Notes: generated from the letters alone by a model not told the origin. 64,000 nt of DNA from an uncultured Acidobacteriota bacterium (GCA_963809485.1 CAWEJX010000004.1:224001-288000), one strand, 5' to 3'. Positions 31,921 through 52,383 are shown, counted from the first letter of the stretch. Translations and numbers: made by a program.

Positions 31921-32024
31921 AAACCCATGATGCGGCGTTGGGCATTTCGCTGAAAGGCGGACATATTTTCATAGGAGTACGTAGGAGTTCTGGACTTATT
32001 GCACGGAGCAGGACGATGGCTGAT

Positions 32025-33757
32025 TCACTTTGAGGTGGTAGGTGGTTCGCTGTTCCACGAAGGATCCTGATAGATGACTTTGCCTCCGACCAATGTCATC
32101 AGGAGCCTTCGTTTTCCCGATTTGATTCGGTGGAATATTGAATAAGTCCTGTGAAATGATGACCACGTCCGCAAGCTTCCCTGCCTCGATGGAGCCTTCC
32201 GTTTTCTCCCGTTTCGCGGCGATTGCTCCGCCCATGGTGTATCCCTGAATGGCCTGCTCCAGAGTGAGCCGCTCGTTTGGAAGCCACCCCCCCGCCGGCG
32301 TTCCCTCCGGGGTCTGGCGCGTCACCAGTATCTGGAGGCCCGGCCAGGGATTCAGAGTTACCACGGGCCAGTCGCTGCCGAAGCTCAGATGGGCCCCTCC
32401 GTTCAGAACCGAGTGCCAGGGAAATGCGTGCTGAGCGCGCTGCGGACCTATGCTTCGCGCCCAGGCCTCAAAAGTGTTGGTGTCCGGAGTTGCATGCAGC
32501 GGCTGCATGCCGGCGATCACGTTGAGTTTTCCGAACCGGGGAATGTCCTGGGCGCTTGGGGCCTCGATATGCTCGATCCGGTCCCGTGCGTCCGTGCGGC
32601 CGTTTGCCTTATTCGCAGCCTCATAGGCATCGAGCGCAAGCCGGATGGTGCGATCGCCAATCGCGTGAGTGGAGATTGGAAAACCGAGCCGATCCAGGCG
32701 GATCACGCTTTCCTTGTACTTTTCGGGTTCAAAATAGAGCTGTCCCCTGTTGGCCGGATCGTGCTCGTAAGGCTCCAGCATCGCTGCCGTATGCGCTTCG
32801 ATGACGCCATCCAGCAGAAACTTCACCTGGCCGGCATCGATCCAATCATCGCCATACTTTTGTCGGTTTTCCTGCAGAGTTGTAATGGCATCCGGAGCAA
32901 CCGGTGCGCTAACAAACCGGGCCATGGTAAAGCGCGCGGTCAAATCGCCTCTTTGCCGGATTTCATCGAAAAGTTCGATGCGCTCCGCGTCCGCGCCGGC
33001 GCTGATCAGGCGGGTCAGGCCCAGGGAGCCGGCGTAACGGATGGCTTTTGTAAGACCATCCAGCTCTTCTTCGCGGGTCGGTTTCGGGGATAACCCGGGT
33101 CACCAATCGTTCCGCAGCCTCCTTCAAAACGCCTGTCGGCTCGCCCGTGACAGGATCGCGCACGATGATACCGCTCGGCGGATCAGGCGTTTTGCGCGTG
33201 ATTCCCGCCGCCTGAAGCGCCTTGCTGTTCGCCAGGGCGGTGTGCCCATCGTATGCCGCCAAATAAACAGGACGATCGGGAACGACTTCGTCCACCAGCT
33301 TCTTGTGGGGCAGGCCGCTTTTGCCGAAGACGCTGTAGACCCATCCCATACCCTGGATCCATTTTCTGTCAGGGTGGGCAGCGGCATAGTCCTGTATCGC
33401 CTTCTGAAATTCACCGACTGTTTTTGCGCTATTGAGTGAAAGATTCCTCAGCTGAGCGGCGCCGGCCATCATGTGGACATGAGCGTCGACGAATCCGGGA
33501 AGCACCATGTGCTGCCTCGCATCGATCACCTTTGTGGAAGGGCCTTGATGCGCTGCAATCGATTGATCCGAACCCACAGCAATGATTTTCCCTGCGCGGA
33601 CGGCCATGGCCTGCGCCCATGGCTCCTTCGGATTCACGGTATAAATTTTCGCATGGATCAACACCGCATCCGCCGGGGTGCCCGCTTGGCGACTGCATGC
33701 TGATATTCCCAAAACAGCGATAAGAAGAACGACAATCGCCAGCGCTCGTTTTTTCAT
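32025..33757 (-). CDS. Amidohydrolase 3 (YtcJ-like) lipoprotein, frameshifted near 33080 and 32105
   Basis: Lipobox ISA-C; PGFVDAHVH; HAIGD; RIEH; FGSDWPV; GSIEAGKLAD. Confidence 0.85.
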
Positions 33758-33875
33758 ATGCAGGATTCCCTTCATAATCCAGGCGGCGGCGAAAAGCGGC
33801 GCCGCTCAAAAGGTTTAGAAGTTACGGCATAATTTAACTTCCCCGATCACCGCAGGTGCACAATGTTGGCTTGTA

Positions 33876-42819: not shown

Positions 42820-44060
42820 GTGGCTCAACCCGACAGCCAAATCGCGCCACCCCTCAAACAAACCGCTGACAGAGCAAAAAGCAGGGCCTGGATGTGGCCT
42901 TTCAGCCTGCTTCTGTTCGTGATCCTGGTAGACTCGATCGACGCCACCTCCTATCGGTCCCGTCATGGCTCAGATCAAAAGCGCGTGGAAAATAAGCAAT
43001 ACAGGTGTCGGCATCTACACAAGCATTTATGGTCTGCTCTCTATCCTCGTGGCTGTGCCCATCGGCGAAGCGGTCAGGCGATGGGGCGTGAAGCGCACCG
43101 TCATGGGCGCGGTGACGATCATTTTCCTTGGAATGATGCTGATGGCAACGGCGGACGCGTTCCCTCAAGGGCTCACGGGCAGAATCTTCGCATCGGCGGG
43201 GATACGGGTGGCAACGGTTGCATCCTGGGCAGGGGCAGCGACGATTGCACCCGCATCGGTCATGACGTCCGCCTGGACCATCATGAATACTGCCAATGCG
43301 GCAGGCGCAATCATCGGGCCGTCGGTTGTTGGAGGCTATGTCGGCTCCAATTTCGGCTGGCAGGCGAGTCTTCTTCACCCTTGCCGGTTTCTCGGTATTC
43401 TGCTTTGTCCTGATCTGGCTGTTCCTGCGCATGCCGTCTGCCAGAACCGCAGCCCCGGATAGCGTTGCGGCGTCGACCGCAACCTCCGGATTCAACGTTT
43501 ACCGGTGCTGGGACATCTACCTGATGGGGCTGATCTTCACCTTCATGATCGGCGGCAGCCAGGTGTCGATCATGAGCTTTGCGCCCCTGGCGATGGCGCA
43601 CCGATGGAATATGGATCCTGCAGGCCATCGGCAATGTGATCGGCCTCTCATATTCGGTAGGATTGCCCGTGATGTTTGTGGCAGGCATTCTCGCCGACAA
43701 GCTTCGCACGCGGAAGAAAATCATGATCGCGGCCGCGAATCCCTATGGCTGCCGGGCTGTTCATGCTCACGTCGCAGGACCAGACGATCTTCATACTGGG
43801 TTTGGTCGGCTATCTCGGCTTCACCTATGCCCCGGGCGCCATGCTTTATGCCTGCGCTCCGGACATGGTACCGAAAGGAACAAGTCTCGGTCCTGTCTAC
43901 GGCCTGCTGGTCGACGATCAGCAACGCCGGCAGCTTTTTCGCGCCCATCATCGTGGGGCGGATACGGGACGCAACAGGCGATTTCAACTCCAGCTTCATC
44001 CTGTTGGGAGTGCTGTGCACGATCAGCTTGCTTCTTTGTCTGAAGCTCCGGGTTCGTTAA
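42820..44060 (+). CDS. MFS transporter, several frameshifts
   Basis: Hydrophobic helices over four ORF pieces; GEAVRRWGVKR and GILADKLRTRK loop motifs; GRIRDATGDF. Confidence 0.75.
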
Positions 44061-45450: not shown

Positions 45451-46992
45451 CTATATGGAAGCTTTGGGCTTCGGCCTGGGGCGATCCAGCCTTTTCTTCA
45501 GCAATTGCCTATACATGCCCAGCTTGACCGCAGCTTTTGTCTGATTGTCATCCGTTTGCTTCAGTGCACTCAAGATGACCCATTTTTCGAGATTATAGGC
45601 CGCAGCTTCCAGCCCCATGCCCCCCTGATCCGTATCCACATCATTGAATCGTATTAAAAAATAGCTTTTTTTCGAATCCTCGATCTTTTTGCGAACCAAT
45701 TCTGCCCGGGTTCTCAGATAATCGCTCACAACGCGCGGAAACATGTTCTCCGCATCGTCCAGATGCTGCATGGCGTGGCGCGGCTTGTCCAAGTCTAATA
45801 ATGTGTCTGCCAGGAGCAGATGGGCGTTGATCTTGAGCTTTTGAGACTTGGCCTTTTTCAGCGCGTCCTCGAAATATTGGCAAGCTTCATCCATTTCATT
45901 ATTCCGGGAATGACATTTGCCCAGGCATATTTTTGCCTCGGCTTGAAGCTCCGGGCTGTTGATCTTCTCCGGGGCCGCCAGATCCAGGGCTTCCATGGCA
46001 TGTTTTGAGGCAATTTTGCAGTTTCTCGAAGCGTCCTCCAGATAGAGCCAGCTTAAAGCCACCAAAACCTCAATTTTTTGCCGCTCGTACCGGTGGGTGC
46101 GACAAATTTCCAAAGCCTGATTGAGATGTGCCTCAGCCTCCTGAAAATTTTTGTCACGGAGAAGCGTCCTGCCGATGTTTGTCAGCGTTCGGGCAATATT
46201 CCGCGAATGATGGGCCGCATTATAGAGCCCCAGCGCGGAGGACAGCGTGTGGAACGACTGAGCGGTCTCACCCTGCGAACGGAGGATCGCGCCCAGACTC
46301 TGCAGGACATTTGCCTTGCTGATGTCGTCTCGGATGTCTTCGAGCAGCTGCTGCGCAGCGAGCAATTTATCCCTTCCTCCGAGCGCGTTCCCCTCTCTCC
46401 AGAGAAAAAATCCTTCAAGGAGGTAGCTGATGCCGATGCGCCAGTTGAGAACCGGCAGATCCCGGGACCGGTTTTTCGACGCGGCAAACCAGCGGAAAAA
46501 ACAGGCGCGGGATTCCTCGCAAGATTTGGTGAGCTCATCCTGTTCAAACAGGCGGCTGAAGCACCGCGCGATGAAATGATGCGCTTCCCCTTCACCCGAA
46601 GGGTCGCGCCTTTCCACGCACGTTTTAAGTATCTGCCGCGCCATGGATATCGCTTTATCGAATTTTCTATTTTCGTAATGATACTCGCACAGGACCAGCT
46701 TCTGTCCCGTTCGAAGACTGCCCATGGACAGAAATTCCGACTCCTTTTTTTGATATTTCTTTATGGCGTTGCCGGCGCTGCTGATGTTTCCACGGTAAAA
46801 ATGCAGCCTCGCGGCGATTGCCGATAATTTGGCTTTGAGCGGCTCATGAATCCGTGAGGCACGGGCATCCTGAAAAACCGCATTGTGATAATCAAATTTC
46901 ATCTGGGCCTGGCGGAAATTGCCGCGCGCCAGATCCTCCTCTATGTCCGCGGCAATAGCCTCCGGGCTCTGTTTGTCGGCCTCTGCCTGCAT
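45451..46992 (-). CDS. TPR-repeat protein with C-terminal Fis-type HTH (putative regulator of the Ubl-like operon)
   Basis: GGAGGA RBS; many TPR-like helices (ANVLQSLGAIL, ARTLTNIGRTL); LEKWVILSALKQTDDNQTKAAVKLGMYRQLL HTH; no AAA+ Walker A or GAFTGA. Confidence 0.8.
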   Translation of the reverse strand: MQAEADKQSPEAIAADIEEDLARGNFRQAQMKFDYHNAVFQDARASRIHEPLKAKLSAIAARLHFYRGNISSAGNAIKKYQKKESEFLSMGSLRTGQKLVLCEYHYENRKFDKAISMARQILKTCVERRDPSGEGEAHHFIARCFSRLFEQDELTKSCEESRACFFRWFAASKNRSRDLPVLNWRIGISYLLEGFFLWREGNALGGRDKLLAAQQLLEDIRDDISKANVLQSLGAILRSQGETAQSFHTLSSALGLYNAAHHSRNIARTLTNIGRTLLRDKNFQEAEAHLNQALEICRTHRYERQKIEVLVALSWLYLEDASRNCKIASKHAMEALDLAAPEKINSPELQAEAKICLGKCHSRNNEMDEACQYFEDALKKAKSQKLKINAHLLLADTLLDLDKPRHAMQHLDDAENMFPRVVSDYLRTRAELVRKKIEDSKKSYFLIRFNDVDTDQGGMGLEAAAYNLEKWVILSALKQTDDNQTKAAVKLGMYRQLLKKRLDRPRPKPKASI

Positions 46993-47089
46993 GGTTATAT
47001 CCTCCCTCGATTTCGACCTCGACGGGGAAAGATCCGGTTCCCGCCCCATCCGGGCCGCGCACCCTCCATGGCACCCAGAATCCTATTAC

Positions 47090-47105
47090 TGCAATATTTA
47101 TTGCA
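47090..47105. promoter_or_regulatory. Palindromic operator candidate 1
   Basis: TGCAATA-TT-TATTGCA perfect inverted repeat in the divergent intergenic region. Confidence 0.6.
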
Positions 47106-47220
47106 TGGCAACCCCAATGGCATTTTTATCCGTGCAGCTGCAACCATTCGCATATTGACAGGCATTCGGTGGCACATTAATCATACGTCAGGACATAAAT
47201 AAGCCAGAATAAATGATGCG

Positions 47221-47236
47221 CGCAACATTTGTTGCA
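47221..47236. promoter_or_regulatory. Palindromic operator candidate 2
   Basis: cGCAACA-TT-TGTTGCa; same spacing and consensus as 47090-47105. Confidence 0.6.
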
Positions 47237-47268
47237 TTTGAGAATACTTCAAAAGGAGGGCCCAAACA

Positions 47269-48879
47269 ATGGAAAAAACCAGGATATCCGGTCTGAACGC
47301 CGGCGAGCTTCGGAACCCATCCGGGCCTTCCAGCCGGCAGGTCTCCCAAAACTTTTGGATACTGCGGGGACTGTCAATCCTGATATTCCTGCTGATTGTC
47401 GGCGGCACCTCTGTCCTTGCCGATCCTGCGTCTGTTCAGGATCTGAAGACTCCGGAGTTGAGTTCCACCGAAGAACAGTTTCGCCAGGTCTACGCCGAAC
47501 TGGAAAGGCAGCGTCAGCTTTTGCACGATCGGACCCGGCTGCCCATAGATGAACAAAGATCGCTGGAAAATCATCTCTCCGAAGTGCGCAGGAGGTTGAA
47601 GAGAATTTCCAGCCAAATGGATGCGCTGCAGAGGCGCGAAAGCCTGCAGGCCGCAGATATTGCATCCTTGACTGCCAGCTTGCGGGATTTTAAGTCTCAG
47701 ATGAGTCTGCAAAACCAAAACGCGGCGACAGCGCAGGAATCAATTCAGGAAAAGACCTCGCTTGTTCTGTATGCCGTTTGGGCACTCGCTGGCGGAATAG
47801 TAGCTCTGGGAGCTGCCTTTCTAGTTTCCCATCATCGCCAGAAGCGGGTGCTCGGAGAAATTATCGGCCACACGAAGAGGCTGTTGGGCATGGGAAAGTC
47901 GAGGCTGCCTGTTCCGGAGGCTGACACAAGGGCTTCGTGGCAGACTCCGGATCCGCAGATCAATTTCGAAGCCCTTTATCCAAAAGAGATTTCGACATTT
48001 AAGCCGCCCGACGACTGGATTGAGGGATTGCGTATCACTCTTACCAGCGAGACGCTCCAGGGGATGGTGGAGGTGGTTGACCGGGCGGAAAGAGAACGCC
48101 CCGGCCTGGAATCCGGCGGGGCTTTGGTAGGGCGGGTAAGGTGCGACGCCGACGGCAATTGGCAGGATGTCTATGTCGAGGGTCTGTTGAGCGCGGGCAA
48201 TGACGTGAAATATGAATGCGCCTATTATGAGGAAGACCGGGCGGCACAGGGATCAGAACTGGAGCGTTTCCGCGCATTGGACACCCGGGTGTCCTACCTC
48301 GGGGATTTTCACCGGCATCCGGGCCGCATGTACTTCCCCAGTGGAGGGGATCATCAAACCGACGCGCGCAATGTCTGTGAGAGTTTTGCAAAAAACTTCA
48401 AGGGCGGATTTGTATACGTGATATTCACTCGCCACGACGGAAGCCGCAAAGGCGGCCTGGTTCAAGACGGATGGAGAGCCGACTTTTATTTTATGCACCG
48501 CGGGCTGCTGGAGTATGTACCTTTCCAGCCGCGCATCGTGGAAGGCGGGGTTCGCCCCAAAGCATGGCAAATCCCTCACCTTCCCAGGGTACGTTCCGAA
48601 CTTGGCGGACTGAGGGCTTTTGCGCAAACAGTCCGGCTTGATCAATTGGCAAAAGACGGCGATGACTACCTGGTGGTCGACGTTGCCGATCCGCGTTGGG
48701 GCGATAGGAGGGTGCTCTTCTTCCTGGCCGATAACTACCCTTACGTTTCCCCAACTGTTTTCCTCGCAAAACACGAAAAAATGACCGCCCTGAACTCCTG
48801 GATACCAGTCTGGAGTCCAAATAGCGGGCTGGTCAACATCCTATATGGCCTAACAGAAAAAGGTGAACTGCCAAGCTGA
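47269..48879 (+). CDS. Membrane-anchored coiled-coil JAB/MPN peptidase with C-terminal Cys-less E2/UEV-like domain
   Basis: AGGAGG RBS; two hydrophobic segments around a coiled coil; ESGG...GDFHRHP...PSGGD JAMM motif; FLADNYPYVSPTVF...WSPNSGLVNIL. Confidence 0.75.
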   Translation: MEKTRISGLNAGELRNPSGPSSRQVSQNFWILRGLSILIFLLIVGGTSVLADPASVQDLKTPELSSTEEQFRQVYAELERQRQLLHDRTRLPIDEQRSLENHLSEVRRRLKRISSQMDALQRRESLQAADIASLTASLRDFKSQMSLQNQNAATAQESIQEKTSLVLYAVWALAGGIVALGAAFLVSHHRQKRVLGEIIGHTKRLLGMGKSRLPVPEADTRASWQTPDPQINFEALYPKEISTFKPPDDWIEGLRITLTSETLQGMVEVVDRAERERPGLESGGALVGRVRCDADGNWQDVYVEGLLSAGNDVKYECAYYEEDRAAQGSELERFRALDTRVSYLGDFHRHPGRMYFPSGGDHQTDARNVCESFAKNFKGGFVYVIFTRHDGSRKGGLVQDGWRADFYFMHRGLLEYVPFQPRIVEGGVRPKAWQIPHLPRVRSELGGLRAFAQTVRLDQLAKDGDDYLVVDVADPRWGDRRVLFFLADNYPYVSPTVFLAKHEKMTALNSWIPVWSPNSGLVNILYGLTEKGELPS

Positions 48880-48894
48880 ACTAATAAGGAGAGA

Positions 48895-49089
48895 ATGATC
48901 ATGCAAGAAAACAAAAGAGCTTTGACTCCAGAAGAGGTTGAAAAATACCGCCGAAAATTGAGGGAGAGCGACATCCGGTACAACACCGATTGTGAGGTTA
49001 TCGATGGGCCGGTTTATGACGTTACACAGGGGCAGGAAACAATCGTCAAACGCGTTCCTTCCGGCGTGGGGCACTGGCTCAAGCTTTAG
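48895..49089 (+). CDS. Small protein, candidate ubiquitin-like modifier
   Basis: AAGGAG RBS; lies in an E1/E2/JAB operon; ends DVTQGQETIVKRVPSGVG-HWLKL. The Ubl assignment is inferred. Confidence 0.6.
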   Translation: MIMQENKRALTPEEVEKYRRKLRESDIRYNTDCEVIDGPVYDVTQGQETIVKRVPSGVGHWLKL

Positions 49090-49349
49090 ACATTCGATCT
49101 TCTGGCGCTCCCGCCCTTGGATATCGATGGATCCCGTTCCAAGGCATGCCAGTCCTTGAATGCACCTGAAATCTCCCAGCGTTGCTGGGAAGGTTATAGA
49201 GTTTGACAGCTCCAGGGTCACCGAACACCGACAGAAGCAGACTAAATCGCTGATGAGCGCTGACCTTGAAGGTGAAGGGCAACGTGCAAGAGTCGCTAAG
49301 GCGCTTCCGAAGCAGGTCGCGTGTTCGCATTCCTGACAGGGTCCATAAG

Positions 49350-50603
49350 ATGAGCAGATGGCTGAAGCAATTGTGCAGCGTGTTTTTTGGAGATGAGGTT
49401 TCTGACGAGAAGGCATCCGTGCATTCATTCGCCAGGAGTGCCGAATTGTCTCAAGTGACCGTTCGCCAGGGCGTCATTGATGCGATTTTTGATCAGGTTG
49501 AGAGACATAAGCGAAAACGCAAGGGCTGCGAGACTGGCGGCGGACTCATCGGTAAGCTTTGTCATTCCCAAAGGGGCGGGTGGCTGATGCAGGTCCAGGG
49601 ACTTCTGGCTCCAGGCCCTTGCGCGGAATACCGCCCCACATATTTCGGAGCAGATCGCACATTTCAGCAGCGATGCCTCCGGAAGCATCACGAGAGGGAT
49701 CCTGAGCTTTCGTTTTTGGGAGACTGGCACCGGCATCCAATCGACATGCGATACCCATCCGCGGGAGACCATTTAACCGACCGGGATAACCTGGCAGAGG
49801 CATTCGATGGGGAGAAGCATGGAATATTTCTATTCCCCATTGTGTCCAGGCATTGTTCCGGCTCCATTCACCATCCTGCACCTTCAATCATGAGCCGGGA
49901 TGGAGTATGGAAGATTGATTTTTACTATCTCACACACGCCCGCAGGAGCTCTTACCAGCCCGCTAATCCCCGGATAGAGGCCGGTCCTTCCGTAGAACTG
50001 AGCTGCCTGGACGAAAGGCCGGAGATTTCCGCGCTGCCAGTGTTCTATTCCGACATGAGGATATCCTGTAACCGCCGGCGTGGCTGGGTCGAGCTTGAAA
50101 TCTCGCGGCCGATATGGGGAAGGGATTCCATTTCCTTTCTTCTTCCTCCCAGCTATCCATTCGATCCGCCGCAGGTCTGGATTACGGGCAACGGCAGGAC
50201 ACGGACCTATGAATCCAGGATGCTGGACCTGTGGAGCGACGCCTATAACCTGCTGAATCTCATATACGAAATTGATCACATGGAAGGAGGCATGAGTCAT
50301 GGCTTGGTACAACCGAAACGAGTCCGGGAAAATGCGATTGGTGCTGGAATGCCAGGCGATGAGGGAAACCGGCTCCCGCTTCGTACTGAAGAAACAGGGG
50401 GAGCAGCTCTATTGGATGGGCCGTCTCAGTCCCATATATTCGGCATTCAATCTGGAGATCCGGTATCCGGACAGTTTTCCGGAGAACGGGCCCCTGGTTT
50501 ACGTGACCAGTCCGGCCCTGCCTCAGGGGACGCCCCATCTTCTGTCCGGCCAGCAACTGTGCATCTTCCATCCGGGCTATGCTCGAAAAAAGGGAGTCTA
50601 TGA
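49350..50603 (+). CDS. Soluble JAB/MPN peptidase with E2/UEV-like domain (homologous part ends ~50290)
   Basis: ETGGGLIG...GDWHRHP...PSAGD; FLLPPSYPFDPPQVW...WSDAYNLLNLIY; the last ~100 codons overlap the E2 gene and are doubtful. Confidence 0.75.
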   Translation: MSRWLKQLCSVFFGDEVSDEKASVHSFARSAELSQVTVRQGVIDAIFDQVERHKRKRKGCETGGGLIGKLCHSQRGGWLMQVQGLLAPGPCAEYRPTYFGADRTFQQRCLRKHHERDPELSFLGDWHRHPIDMRYPSAGDHLTDRDNLAEAFDGEKHGIFLFPIVSRHCSGSIHHPAPSIMSRDGVWKIDFYYLTHARRSSYQPANPRIEAGPSVELSCLDERPEISALPVFYSDMRISCNRRRGWVELEISRPIWGRDSISFLLPPSYPFDPPQVWITGNGRTRTYESRMLDLWSDAYNLLNLIYEIDHMEGGMSHGLVQPKRVRENAIGAGMPGDEGNRLPLRTEETGGAALLDGPSQSHIFGIQSGDPVSGQFSGERAPGLRDQSGPASGDAPSSVRPATVHLPSGLCSKKGSL

Positions 50604-50721
50604 CGCGGCAAGAACAACTGCCGCAACAATTCTCGGCCATGCAATTTCGTGGCTGATCTGCTACGAAATCTGGCAAACGACAGGCCGATGGGAAATGGGC
50701 GAAAGCCCCACGGAAGACTGA
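50299..50721 (+). CDS. Prokaryotic E2/UBC-fold conjugating enzyme
   Basis: AGGAGG RBS; RLVLE N-terminal helix; IRYPDSFP..GP.VYV; PH......LC catalytic Cys; C-terminal SWLICYEIWQTTGRW. Confidence 0.78.
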   Translation: MAWYNRNESGKMRLVLECQAMRETGSRFVLKKQGEQLYWMGRLSPIYSAFNLEIRYPDSFPENGPLVYVTSPALPQGTPHLLSGQQLCIFHPGYARKKGVYDAARTTAATILGHAISWLICYEIWQTTGRWEMGESPTED

Positions 50722-50740: not shown

Positions 50741-51613
50741 ATGAACCTCTATGACAGAATCCGGGAAATCGTCAATCCAGATGTCTTTGACAACAAGCAA
50801 GTCGTAGCTTTCGGTTTGGGCTCGGGTGGAAGCACTACGGTGCTGGAGCTGGCTAAATGCGGCGTCAGCAACTTTGAGCTTGTCGATCCCGATCATCTGG
50901 ATCTCAGCAACATTGTCCGCCATGTGTGCGGATTAAGGGATATAGGGCGGAACAAGGCGGATGCCATGCGAGACGAGATTCTCAACAGGAACCGCAACGC
51001 ATGCGTCGGCGCCCACGCATTTGACATCATGGAGGACTATCAACGCACGTCCGATTTGATACGCGACGCCGACCTCGTGCTTGCCGGGACAGACAATGAG
51101 CCTTCCAAGCACCGTATCAACCTGATCAGCCTGGAAGCCGGCATACCGGTCGTTTACGCCGCCGCCTATCATCGCGCTTTTTGCGGCGAGGTATTCCGGG
51201 TAATTCCGGGGCAAACGCCCTGCTATGCATGCTTTGCTCATGCGCTGGGCCGAACGGAAACAGTCGAGCAAACCGATAGGAGCAAGCTTCGTTACGACGA
51301 TCCGGAAATGGAGCATGCTCTTTCAACCTCCCCGGGACTGGGTATGGATATCGCAGCAATCGCCCTGATTGCCTCAAAGCTGGCGTTAATGACTCTCCTT
51401 GAAGGGACCCAATGGGCGATGCCGCCATTCTCAGGCAACTATATATTCTGGGGCAATCGGCCTCTGAATAACGGCCTGGTGACTCAGTACTGGGAAAGAA
51501 AATTCTGGCAGATCCGCTGCGATCCCCAATGCCTGATTTGTGGCGTGACAGGAAGCAACAGGAATGAGGGTTTGTATGAGGAAATCATGAACGGCCTAGG
51601 TGGAGCAGCATGA
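50741..51613 (+). CDS. ThiF/MoeB-family E1-like adenylyltransferase
   Basis: GLGSGGS, VDPD, SNIVRH, GRNKA, GTDN, Zn ligands CYAC and CLIC. Confidence 0.9.
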   Translation: MNLYDRIREIVNPDVFDNKQVVAFGLGSGGSTTVLELAKCGVSNFELVDPDHLDLSNIVRHVCGLRDIGRNKADAMRDEILNRNRNACVGAHAFDIMEDYQRTSDLIRDADLVLAGTDNEPSKHRINLISLEAGIPVVYAAAYHRAFCGEVFRVIPGQTPCYACFAHALGRTETVEQTDRSKLRYDDPEMEHALSTSPGLGMDIAAIALIASKLALMTLLEGTQWAMPPFSGNYIFWGNRPLNNGLVTQYWERKFWQIRCDPQCLICGVTGSNRNEGLYEEIMNGLGGAA

Positions 51614-52383
51614 TGACAATCCTGCTCGAGGTGAAGCCTTGGGTTTACGCGGCAACGCTGATAGCCGCGATTGTGTCGCTATTCATGTGGTGTCGCCGGC
51701 GCAAGAAGAAGGCACGAAGCGTTTCCCGGCAGGCATCCAACCATGGAAAATGGAAACAGTCAGCTACTGCCACCGAGACCGTTGCGGACAGCATTTCCAG
51801 ACTGCAGACAGCTTTCGGCTTCCGGATCGACGATGATTTCGGAGTTCGGCTAGGTTCCCTGCTAAGCACGGCAAAATATTACAGGCGACTGGGTTTTGTC
51901 GAATTGGCGCATACCCTGGACGATGTGGCGGAAAAAGCGGTTGAGAGCCTCAGAAGCCGCTGTGAGAAAACACTGAAAGAGGTGAAGATCGAATGCGTAG
52001 CATTCCAGCACAATGAGCGGGGCATCGCGGCCGGATTTGTCCTGAATCCGGCTGCGATGTCGGAGCCTTCTCCCGGTACATTTCTGCTTGAAATTGCCGT
52101 CGGCCCCGCAGGCAACAGGGCGGGGGGCCGAACTTCGCGGTATTTTGCAATACGGCTTGAAAAAGGCCGAATCGTGAAATTAAGCGCCGCGGAAACACTT
52201 ATTACCCTACCCGACAGGCCGAATTCCGTCACGGATGAGGTGGGCAATCTGATTGTGACCGCCGTCGATCCATGGGTCTGTGCCATCATTCTAGGCAATC
52301 GGCAACTTGCCCAGGACAACTGCCCGTGTCCGCCTTTTATGGAGGAATACGAGAAAATATTGAGATCCCTATTACGGCCCTAA
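51610..52383 (+). CDS. Hypothetical protein with N-terminal membrane anchor
   Basis: ATGA overlap with the E1 stop; WVYAATLIAAIVSLFMWC followed by RRRKKK. Confidence 0.7.
   Translation: MMTILLEVKPWVYAATLIAAIVSLFMWCRRRKKKARSVSRQASNHGKWKQSATATETVADSISRLQTAFGFRIDDDFGVRLGSLLSTAKYYRRLGFVELAHTLDDVAEKAVESLRSRCEKTLKEVKIECVAFQHNERGIAAGFVLNPAAMSEPSPGTFLLEIAVGPAGNRAGGRTSRYFAIRLEKGRIVKLSAAETLITLPDRPNSVTDEVGNLIVTAVDPWVCAIILGNRQLAQDNCPCPPFMEEYEKILRSLLRP

Follow-up and report, generated by a model that had tools for sequence, protein, structure and literature searches.

To our knowledge, every stand-alone modifier of E1/E2 enzymes is a beta-grasp protein, the sole exception being CBASS and its kin, in which a whole enzyme is conjugated via its tail. 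Among other bacterial modifiers, Pup and UBact are proteins of about 60 residues that do not adopt the beta-grasp fold and have a functional C-terminus, Pup being ligated through its C-terminal glutamate by the glutamine-synthetase-like enzymes PafA and Dop. In the Bil system, the JAB peptidase reportedly pre-processes the modifier, exposing a glycine. The E1s of CBASS and 6A-MBL systems adenylate the disordered, conserved C-terminus of a protein that is not of the beta-grasp fold (10.1101/2022.03.31.486616; PMC11601596), Cap2 uses a cysteine of its crossover loop (10.1101/2022.03.31.486616) and in Bub E1s a tyrosine of the crossover loop is catalytic (PMC11601596).

Here we describe an operon from an uncultured Acidobacteriota bacterium (GCA_963809485.1, CAWEJX010000004.1:224001-288000) in which an E1, an E2 and two JAB peptidases are encoded together with a small protein. 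In the window, that is the whole stretch of 64,000 nucleotides that was analysed, these genes lie on the plus strand in the order JAB1, small gene, JAB2, E2, E1 and a 257-residue membrane protein, flanked by ordinary metabolic genes. The preliminary description of the locus had singled out the small gene as the only tiny gene in an E1/E2/JAB operon, and it is indeed the sole small gene between the enzymes. The enzyme genes and their neighbours are the following.

45451..47049, minus strand: divergent TPR protein with a C-terminal Fis-type HTH (TPR_12 1.5e-19; HTH_8 3.6e-4, below the Pfam cut-off)
47269..48879, plus strand: JAB1 (Prok-JAB 2.9e-8), with two hydrophobic segments, a coiled region and a Cys-less C-terminal domain, tentatively E2/RWD-like
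48310-48351, plus strand: JAMM motif of JAB1, HxHx7SxxD, intact
49266..50603, plus strand: JAB2, start uncertain (49266, 49284 or 49347; Prok-JAB 1.5e-5; PADLOC JAB 1.8e-10), with the same C-terminal domain as JAB1
49728-49769, plus strand: JAMM motif of JAB2, intact
50299..50721, plus strand: E2 (PADLOC E2 2.3e-20)
50557-50574, plus strand: LCIFHP motif of the E2 with the candidate catalytic Cys88, a Cys that is aligned in 5 of 5 primary E2s
50741..51613, plus strand: ThiF-type E1 of 290 residues (ThiF 5.9e-33; PADLOC CBASS-type E1-E2 4.7e-32), with GxGxxG and two CxxC pairs
51293-51295, plus strand: invariant Tyr185 of the E1, in the E1 loop (51233-51330)
51610..52383, plus strand: last gene of the operon, 257 residues with an N-terminal hydrophobic segment and no family; it overlaps the end of the E1 gene by 4 nt

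The catalytic motifs of JAB, E2 and E1 are all present in the operon. The C-terminal domains of JAB1 and JAB2 are homologous to each other (1e-9) and bear a marginal likeness to the YPxxxPxV region of E2s (E 0.07-0.2), with no Cys at the catalytic place; we tentatively assign them as E2/RWD-like. In an alignment of the E1 clade, the stretch that separates the CxxC motif from the PGLG motif, in which crossover-loop catalytic residues lie, is free of Cys in all 67 sequences, and each of them has an aligned Tyr, which is Tyr185 in the window. Across the operon proteins, scans with Pfam, PADLOC and NCBIfam detected neither a Ubl nor a CD-NTase or MBL domain, and no E3 or target-recognition module was found among them. 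The Pfam scan of the operon gave no family for the E2, the small ORF or the 257-residue protein, DUF6527 (PF20137) thus not being found, and for the remaining proteins of the operon it gave only Prok-JAB or ThiF and weak sub-threshold matches. The ESM Atlas held no usable match for the 257-residue protein. The divergent TPR-HTH protein is a possible regulator. Conjugation of the E1 to itself by way of its Gly-rich end was considered and rejected, since relatives at <=61% identity do not retain it, and no operon protein other than the small one has a conserved Gly or Ala C-terminus.

Reading frames in this contig are to be treated with caution, because two genes of the window, those for an Amidohydro_3 protein (31996-33775) and an MFS transporter (42965-44060), are each split into two ORFs and represent either pseudogenes or assembly indels. 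The JAB2 ORF overlaps the E2 gene by 305 nt (window 50299-50603) in a different frame, and the GC content by codon position in the overlap favours the E2 frame as the coding one; either the tail of JAB2 is disordered and free of constraint, or a stop was lost or an indel introduced in the assembly at this point. A scan for promoters and terminators gave matches at chance level only.

The small gene begins 21 nt past the JAB1 stop, has its own ribosome-binding site and lies between the two JAB genes. Its features are given below.

48886..48891, plus strand: Shine-Dalgarno sequence AAGGAG, read directly and conserved in the related contig L014
48901..49089, plus strand: small gene, 62 residues plus stop (dN/dS 0.048; 94% and 59% identity in its relatives; annotated publicly at 62 residues)
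49069..49077, plus strand: invariant Gly-His-Trp, residues 57-59, present in each of the 5 distinct sequences and a candidate site for processing or attachment
49078..49086, plus strand: variable distal tail, 3 residues in the window and 11 and 2 in relatives

An ORF does span 48895-49089 on the plus strand, and its translation ends with the C-terminus quoted in the preliminary description. The good ribosome-binding site claimed for it also stands, as AAGGAG; the start and the length of 64 residues most likely do not. The gene most likely comprises 48901-49089 and encodes 62 residues, since AAGGAG lies 3 nt from the ATG at 48895 and 9 nt from the ATG at 48901, the ATG at 48895 is absent from L014, the second Met (ATG 48901) is the start in all relatives, and P0190, a public annotation identical to the small protein of the window, has 62 residues. 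Use of 48895 would add Met-Ile, and the residues previously numbered G59-H60-W61 become 57-59 of the 62-residue protein.

L014 is a metagenome contig of 2.7 kb that aligns to window 46455-49162 with 82.6% DNA identity and so allows the constraint on the small gene to be set beside that on JAB1. Over its 62 codons the small gene shows 19 synonymous and 4 non-synonymous codon differences (dN/dS 0.048), with 20 of the 25 base differences at third codon positions, and its GC content by codon position is coding-like, following the same pattern as the neighbouring genes. In the same contig pair, JAB1 has a dN/dS of 0.27 over the whole gene (0.14 in the JAB domain, 0.17 in the C-terminal domain and 0.47 in the N-terminal part), and protein identity is 94% for the small protein and 77.2% for JAB1. 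The small gene is the best conserved and most constrained gene measured in the operon. Modifiers are typically highly conserved relative to their enzymes. Contig fragments of 151-329 nt from near-identical strains confirm two known variants, these fragments not reaching the tail. The small ORF is a real gene: although several genes in the window are split, a chance ORF or an assembly artefact is excluded by the low dN/dS, by the excess of differences at third codon positions and by the existence of independent contigs and gene calls. Nor has an assembly indel altered the tail, as had been feared; the window's shorter tail arises from a base substitution that makes TAG where L014 has a Glu codon. 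The gap from the small gene to JAB2 is unusually long, at 176-257 nt (window 49090-49346). Conservation in L014 is partial over the first 70 nt of this gap, which gave no sign of RNA structure beyond the ordinary (z -0.77) and matched nothing in Rfam.

Five distinct sequences of the small protein are available, forming three clusters at 90% identity, and Val-Pro-Ser-x-x-Gly-His-Trp is kept across all of them; several Lys residues are also invariant. Of what follows the Gly, variability is confined to positions past the Trp, which is followed by 3, 11 or 2 residues. The earlier expectation of a conserved Gly and a variable tail is therefore borne out for the Gly (5 of 5) and for the length of the distal tail, and fails for His-Trp, which is as invariant as the Gly. 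Because of this, the five residues after the Gly, previously taken for a cleavable tail, are not simply a disposable pro-peptide. Either the protein would be cut elsewhere than after the Gly, or the tail would have another role, such as docking.

Searches of Pfam (E <=10), PHROGs, NCBIfam and PADLOC gave no match for the small protein, nor was there a match in the PDB (best E 0.66), and a feature search of the ESM Atlas found nothing. The AlphaFold2 model, built from a 3-row alignment, has a pLDDT of 55.8; it opens with a helix (residues 12-24) and continues in short strands. The model is too uncertain to name a fold, and its helix-first order is not the beta-grasp order. Neither the model nor the Pfam and PDB searches thus give positive evidence for the reduced beta-grasp or ubiquitin-like fold that had been proposed. 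The size of the protein contributes little here, as ThiS is of approximately the same size and being too short for a beta-grasp fold is a weak argument.

Folding of the E1 (66-row alignment) together with the small protein, a check put forward in the preliminary description, was passed weakly: the score was 0.42 (runs of 0.42, 0.55 and 0.41) against 0.00 for the best of three controls, and it lies in the range of <=0.60 that contains 7 of 80 solved complexes and both passing mismatches, where a prediction is more often wrong than right unless the pair was likely beforehand. Of 80 solved complexes, 58 pass the mark applied to such predictions, as do 2 of 110 mismatched pairs. Contact agreement between the runs was at least 63% and the pLDDT of the partner at least 52, with no interface reported. 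The prediction thus lends weak support to a contact between the small protein and the E1.

Relatives of the small protein are few. A word-based search of 5.8 billion clustered proteins returned a single one (94%), and a HMMER scan of 1.84 billion representatives returned two true relatives (94% and 59% identity) together with two matches that were rejected as repeat-protein artefacts. Members of the 94% cluster contribute two more variants, and three clusters at 90% identity are all that were found. One locus among metagenome contigs matched the small protein; a match in one genome contig was discarded as a chance pattern inside a large protein, the surrounding cluster being by eye type II secretion or pilus-like. 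No relative was found among viral contigs, phages and plasmids, and no paralogue in the window's own genome. The conserved gene order that had been anticipated is seen in L014 only, the 59% relative sitting on a contig of 597 nt. Seven related E1s were recovered at 46-91% identity, including one named Candidatus Poribacteria by its source. Since only three clusters of the small protein stand against these seven E1s at >=46% identity, the small gene may be missing, uncalled or unrecognisable in some of their operons.

The operon is accessory. It occurs in this form in 1 of 30 genomes of the genus, and 2 of the 30 yielded a comparable E1 at E <=1e-35, namely the window's genome and G002, whose operon is of another type. 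The same two genomes are the only ones with such an E1 among 137 of the class, and at E <=1e-25 the count is 4 of 401 genomes of the phylum; the genomes counted include the unpublished G034, from which no locus was used. Viral collections scanned with the E1, JAB2 and the E1 alignment yielded nothing.

The operon of G002 (locus L012) and that of G240 (L018) encode E1s that are 33-34% identical to the window E1. Both have the order small gene, E2, second E2-like protein, E1, JAB, MBL-like protein and membrane protein, and their small genes define a family, here termed 'LGGEY', found at the following places.

L012, 731-901: 'LGGEY' small gene of G002
L018, 6304-6498: 'LGGEY' small gene of G240
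L019-L023: viral loci with 'LGGEY' genes

The family comprises 1292 unannotated proteins of 56-64 residues, compared with the three clusters known for the window protein. Leu-Gly-Gly-Glu-(Tyr/Phe/Trp) is present in 116 of 117 aligned members and is followed by 0-12 variable residues, with no tail in 15 members, 7 residues in 85 and 96 distinct tails overall. AlphaFold2 predicts (pLDDT 72.3) a helix, a hairpin, a short helix and a long unstructured tail, an arrangement that is not beta-grasp, and a Foldseek search with this model against BFVD gave 0 matches at E <=0.001. 'LGGEY' proteins and the window protein are alike in size and in the kind of operon, and also in layout, each having a helix, short strands and a tail in which an invariant Gly precedes a polar and an aromatic residue and then variable residues. 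Homology between the two was set aside as unproven (hhalign probability 6%; hmmsearch -1.4 bits; shuffles scoring at least as high as the real sequence in 1475 of 2000 trials), and a search of the window's genome with the 'LGGEY' profile found nothing. The family is an analogy and a lead for the window protein, not evidence of membership.

In the bacterial loci 'LGGEY' genes stand first in the operon and abut the E2 gene (3 of 3), and in the viral contigs they lie among phage genes, including those for terminase, capsid, neck terminator, HNH and methylases (5 of 5). No E1, E2 or JAB was found on those five phage contigs, and one of the phage-borne copies lies 2 kb from a Tad5-type anti-Thoeris gene. 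'LGGEY' proteins may serve as modifiers in the MBL-type systems and be mimicked by the copies that phages carry.

Other cousin operons differ in content. The second E2-like protein of the MBL-type operons (L012 1257-1826; L018 6874-7401) has an N-terminal domain that by eye resembles a Phd/YefM antitoxin, and at the catalytic place it has a Ser in one genome and a Cys in the other. In a further cousin operon, from G027, a 53-residue ORF lies between E2 and JAB (L013 8058-8219, minus strand). CBASS-like cousins without a small gene are found in G168 and on a Bradyrhizobium plasmid, both with a JAB, an E2 and an E1 that has a long N-terminal extension. In G168, the order is HTH-JAB, E2 and E1, then by eye a nucleotidyltransferase and a 493-residue protein without assignment, and on the Bradyrhizobium plasmid, which is conjugative, the genes after JAB, E2 and E1 encode a hypothetical protein, a TIR protein and, between them, what is annotated as a dsDNA nuclease. 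These are the CBASS-like defence clusters in which the long cousin E1s sit (L017 5691-11211; L028 3951-10321).

Taken as a whole, these observations are best explained, at somewhat less than an even chance in our estimate, if the 62-residue protein is a non-beta-grasp substrate or modifier of the E1 and E2 that is attached via its C-terminal tail. To judge from the encoded proteins it is the only candidate donor within the operon, and a substrate unlike ubiquitin is plausible here because the nearest models of the E1, those of CBASS and 6A-MBL, act on non-beta-grasp proteins. The main rival, rather unlikely yet to be taken seriously, is that the small protein is a non-covalent subunit, namely a regulator, an inhibitor or pseudo-substrate, or an adaptor, which binds the E1, the E2 or the JAB tails and is never conjugated, with Gly-His-Trp serving as a docking motif. 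An invariant His-Trp is more what one would expect of a motif for binding than of a site of cleavage, the weakly predicted contact with the E1 is equally compatible with either view, and no E3 or target-recognition module accompanies the enzymes; the 'LGGEY' analogues that stand alone in phages, one of them near a Tad5-type gene, also suggest action without a cognate E1 and E2. However, a non-covalent role would leave the system without any donor, as neither a Ubl, a CD-NTase, an MBL protein nor another conserved Gly or Ala C-terminus is present in the operon. The same lack of a donor weighs on the improbable proposal that the small protein is an acceptor or a decoy target, either modified by the E2 on its many lysines or mimicking a protein of an invader. 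That several Lys residues are invariant and that the unrelated 'LGGEY' family has phage-borne copies would fit such a role, as would the self-modification in vitro of Bub E2s (PMC11601596), but searches of phages and plasmids gave no relative of the window protein.

That the small protein is a true but minimal beta-grasp Ubl, a member of the ThiS/ubiquitin superfamily whose sequence has diverged past recognition, is similarly improbable. The operon context of E1, E2 and JAB, a size near that of ThiS and a low-confidence model with one helix and several short strands are what such a protein would show; against this, Pfam gives no Ubl, ThiS or Pup family at E <=10, no PDB chain matches at E <0.6, the ESM Atlas feature search is empty, and in the model, at its low confidence, helix 12-24 comes first and the N-terminal hairpin is missing. 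We give as small a chance to the small gene being an unrelated passenger of the operon, such as an antitoxin-like or regulatory peptide, or encoding a precursor peptide on which the E1-like enzyme acts in the manner of MccB or PaaA, tailoring it. The E1 sequence does resemble MccB (2e-11) and PaaA (1e-11), but a Cys-containing E2 and two JAMM peptidases indicate conjugation rather than peptide tailoring, and the tight spacing and strong constraint bind the gene to the operon.

If the small protein is the donor, as we tentatively favour, it would be the dedicated, stand-alone substrate of the E1/E2/JAB set, presented to the E1 by its flexible C-terminal tail. One of the two JAMM peptidases would cut the tail at or just past Gly-His-Trp, and the exposed carboxylate would be adenylated by the ThiF-type E1. 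The acyl group would then pass to Cys88 of the E2, either directly or via a Tyr oxyester as in Bub, since the E1 has no crossover-loop Cys and an invariant Tyr; Tyr185, if catalytic, would make this a cascade that mixes oxyester and thioester steps. The E2 may in turn hand the small protein to an amine on a target, and the JABs would also undo the conjugation, their Cys-less E2/RWD-like tails holding the small protein or the E2. By analogy, a role in conflict or defence, or in stress signalling, is likely because the nearest relatives of the E1 sit in anti-phage systems.

A more far-reaching reading, which we regard as unlikely though worth stating, is that the operon represents a new class of modifier: a free, non-beta-grasp protein of ~57-59 residues, made of a helix and short strands, which JAMM peptidases with E2/RWD-like binding domains of their own would mature and a Tyr E1 would activate and pass to a Cys E2. 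If true, a free protein of 6-7 kDa with a different fold would show that the E1/E2/JAB machinery is not tied to the ubiquitin fold. The mixed oxyester and thioester cascade would be one undescribed for Bil, Bub or CBASS, and a Cys-less Tyr E1 paired with a Cys E2 would widen an oxyester chemistry so far seen only in Bub. The protein would also provide a minimal, easily synthesised substrate for work on the specificity of E1 and JAB enzymes and suggest what the many small genes that lie next to bacterial E2 genes and lack annotation may encode. Taken with the 'LGGEY' family and its 1292 members, it would imply that bacteria, and some phages too, employ numerous non-ubiquitin mini-modifiers alongside E1/E2 machinery. 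We found no description in the literature of a small non-Ubl gene in E1/E2/JAB operons, though Ledvina et al. may include operon families of this kind in their published article or its supplements.

Comparison with the known systems places the operon near several of them. The E1 is nearest to the models of CBASS type II and 6A-MBL (PADLOC E1-E2 4.7e-32; NCBIfam 6A-MBL cap2_3 4.7e-16), although its 58.5 bits against cap2_3 are far below the cut-off of 320, and a JAB peptidase is present as in type II CBASS, which consists of the E1-E2 Cap2, the JAB Cap3 and a CD-NTase substrate. In those systems, however, E2 and E1 are fused, whereas they are separate genes in the window, which has two JABs, each fused to a putative E2/RWD-like domain, and no recognised CD-NTase, MBL or effector. 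Their substrate is an enzyme, whereas the candidate substrate here is a free 62-residue protein, and, unlike in CBASS, the crossover loop of the window E1 has a Tyr and no Cys.

With Bil (BilABCD), the operon shares a separate E1, E2 and JAB together with a small modifier, here a candidate one (10.1101/2023.09.26.559546). BilA, however, has an ISG15-like beta-grasp fold, and the E1 BilD is built of several domains, among them inactive and active adenylation domains and a Cys domain, whereas the small protein of the window matches no Ubl and the window E1 is a single domain of 290 residues. With Bub (6E/DUF6527) it shares the conserved Tyr on the E1 crossover loop in the place of the Cys, the catalytic role of which is putative in the window E1. 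Bub E2s nevertheless use a Ser, where the window E2 has the Cys of LCIFHP, and Bub has beta-grasp BubA modifiers and always the DUF6527 protein BubE. The operon also differs from Pup and UBact, as the small protein has no Pup-family match in Pfam (E <=10) and its partners are an E1, an E2 and JABs. Judged by the defining features of CBASS, 6A-MBL, Bil and Bub, the operon stands outside all four, yet it is built from the same enzyme families.
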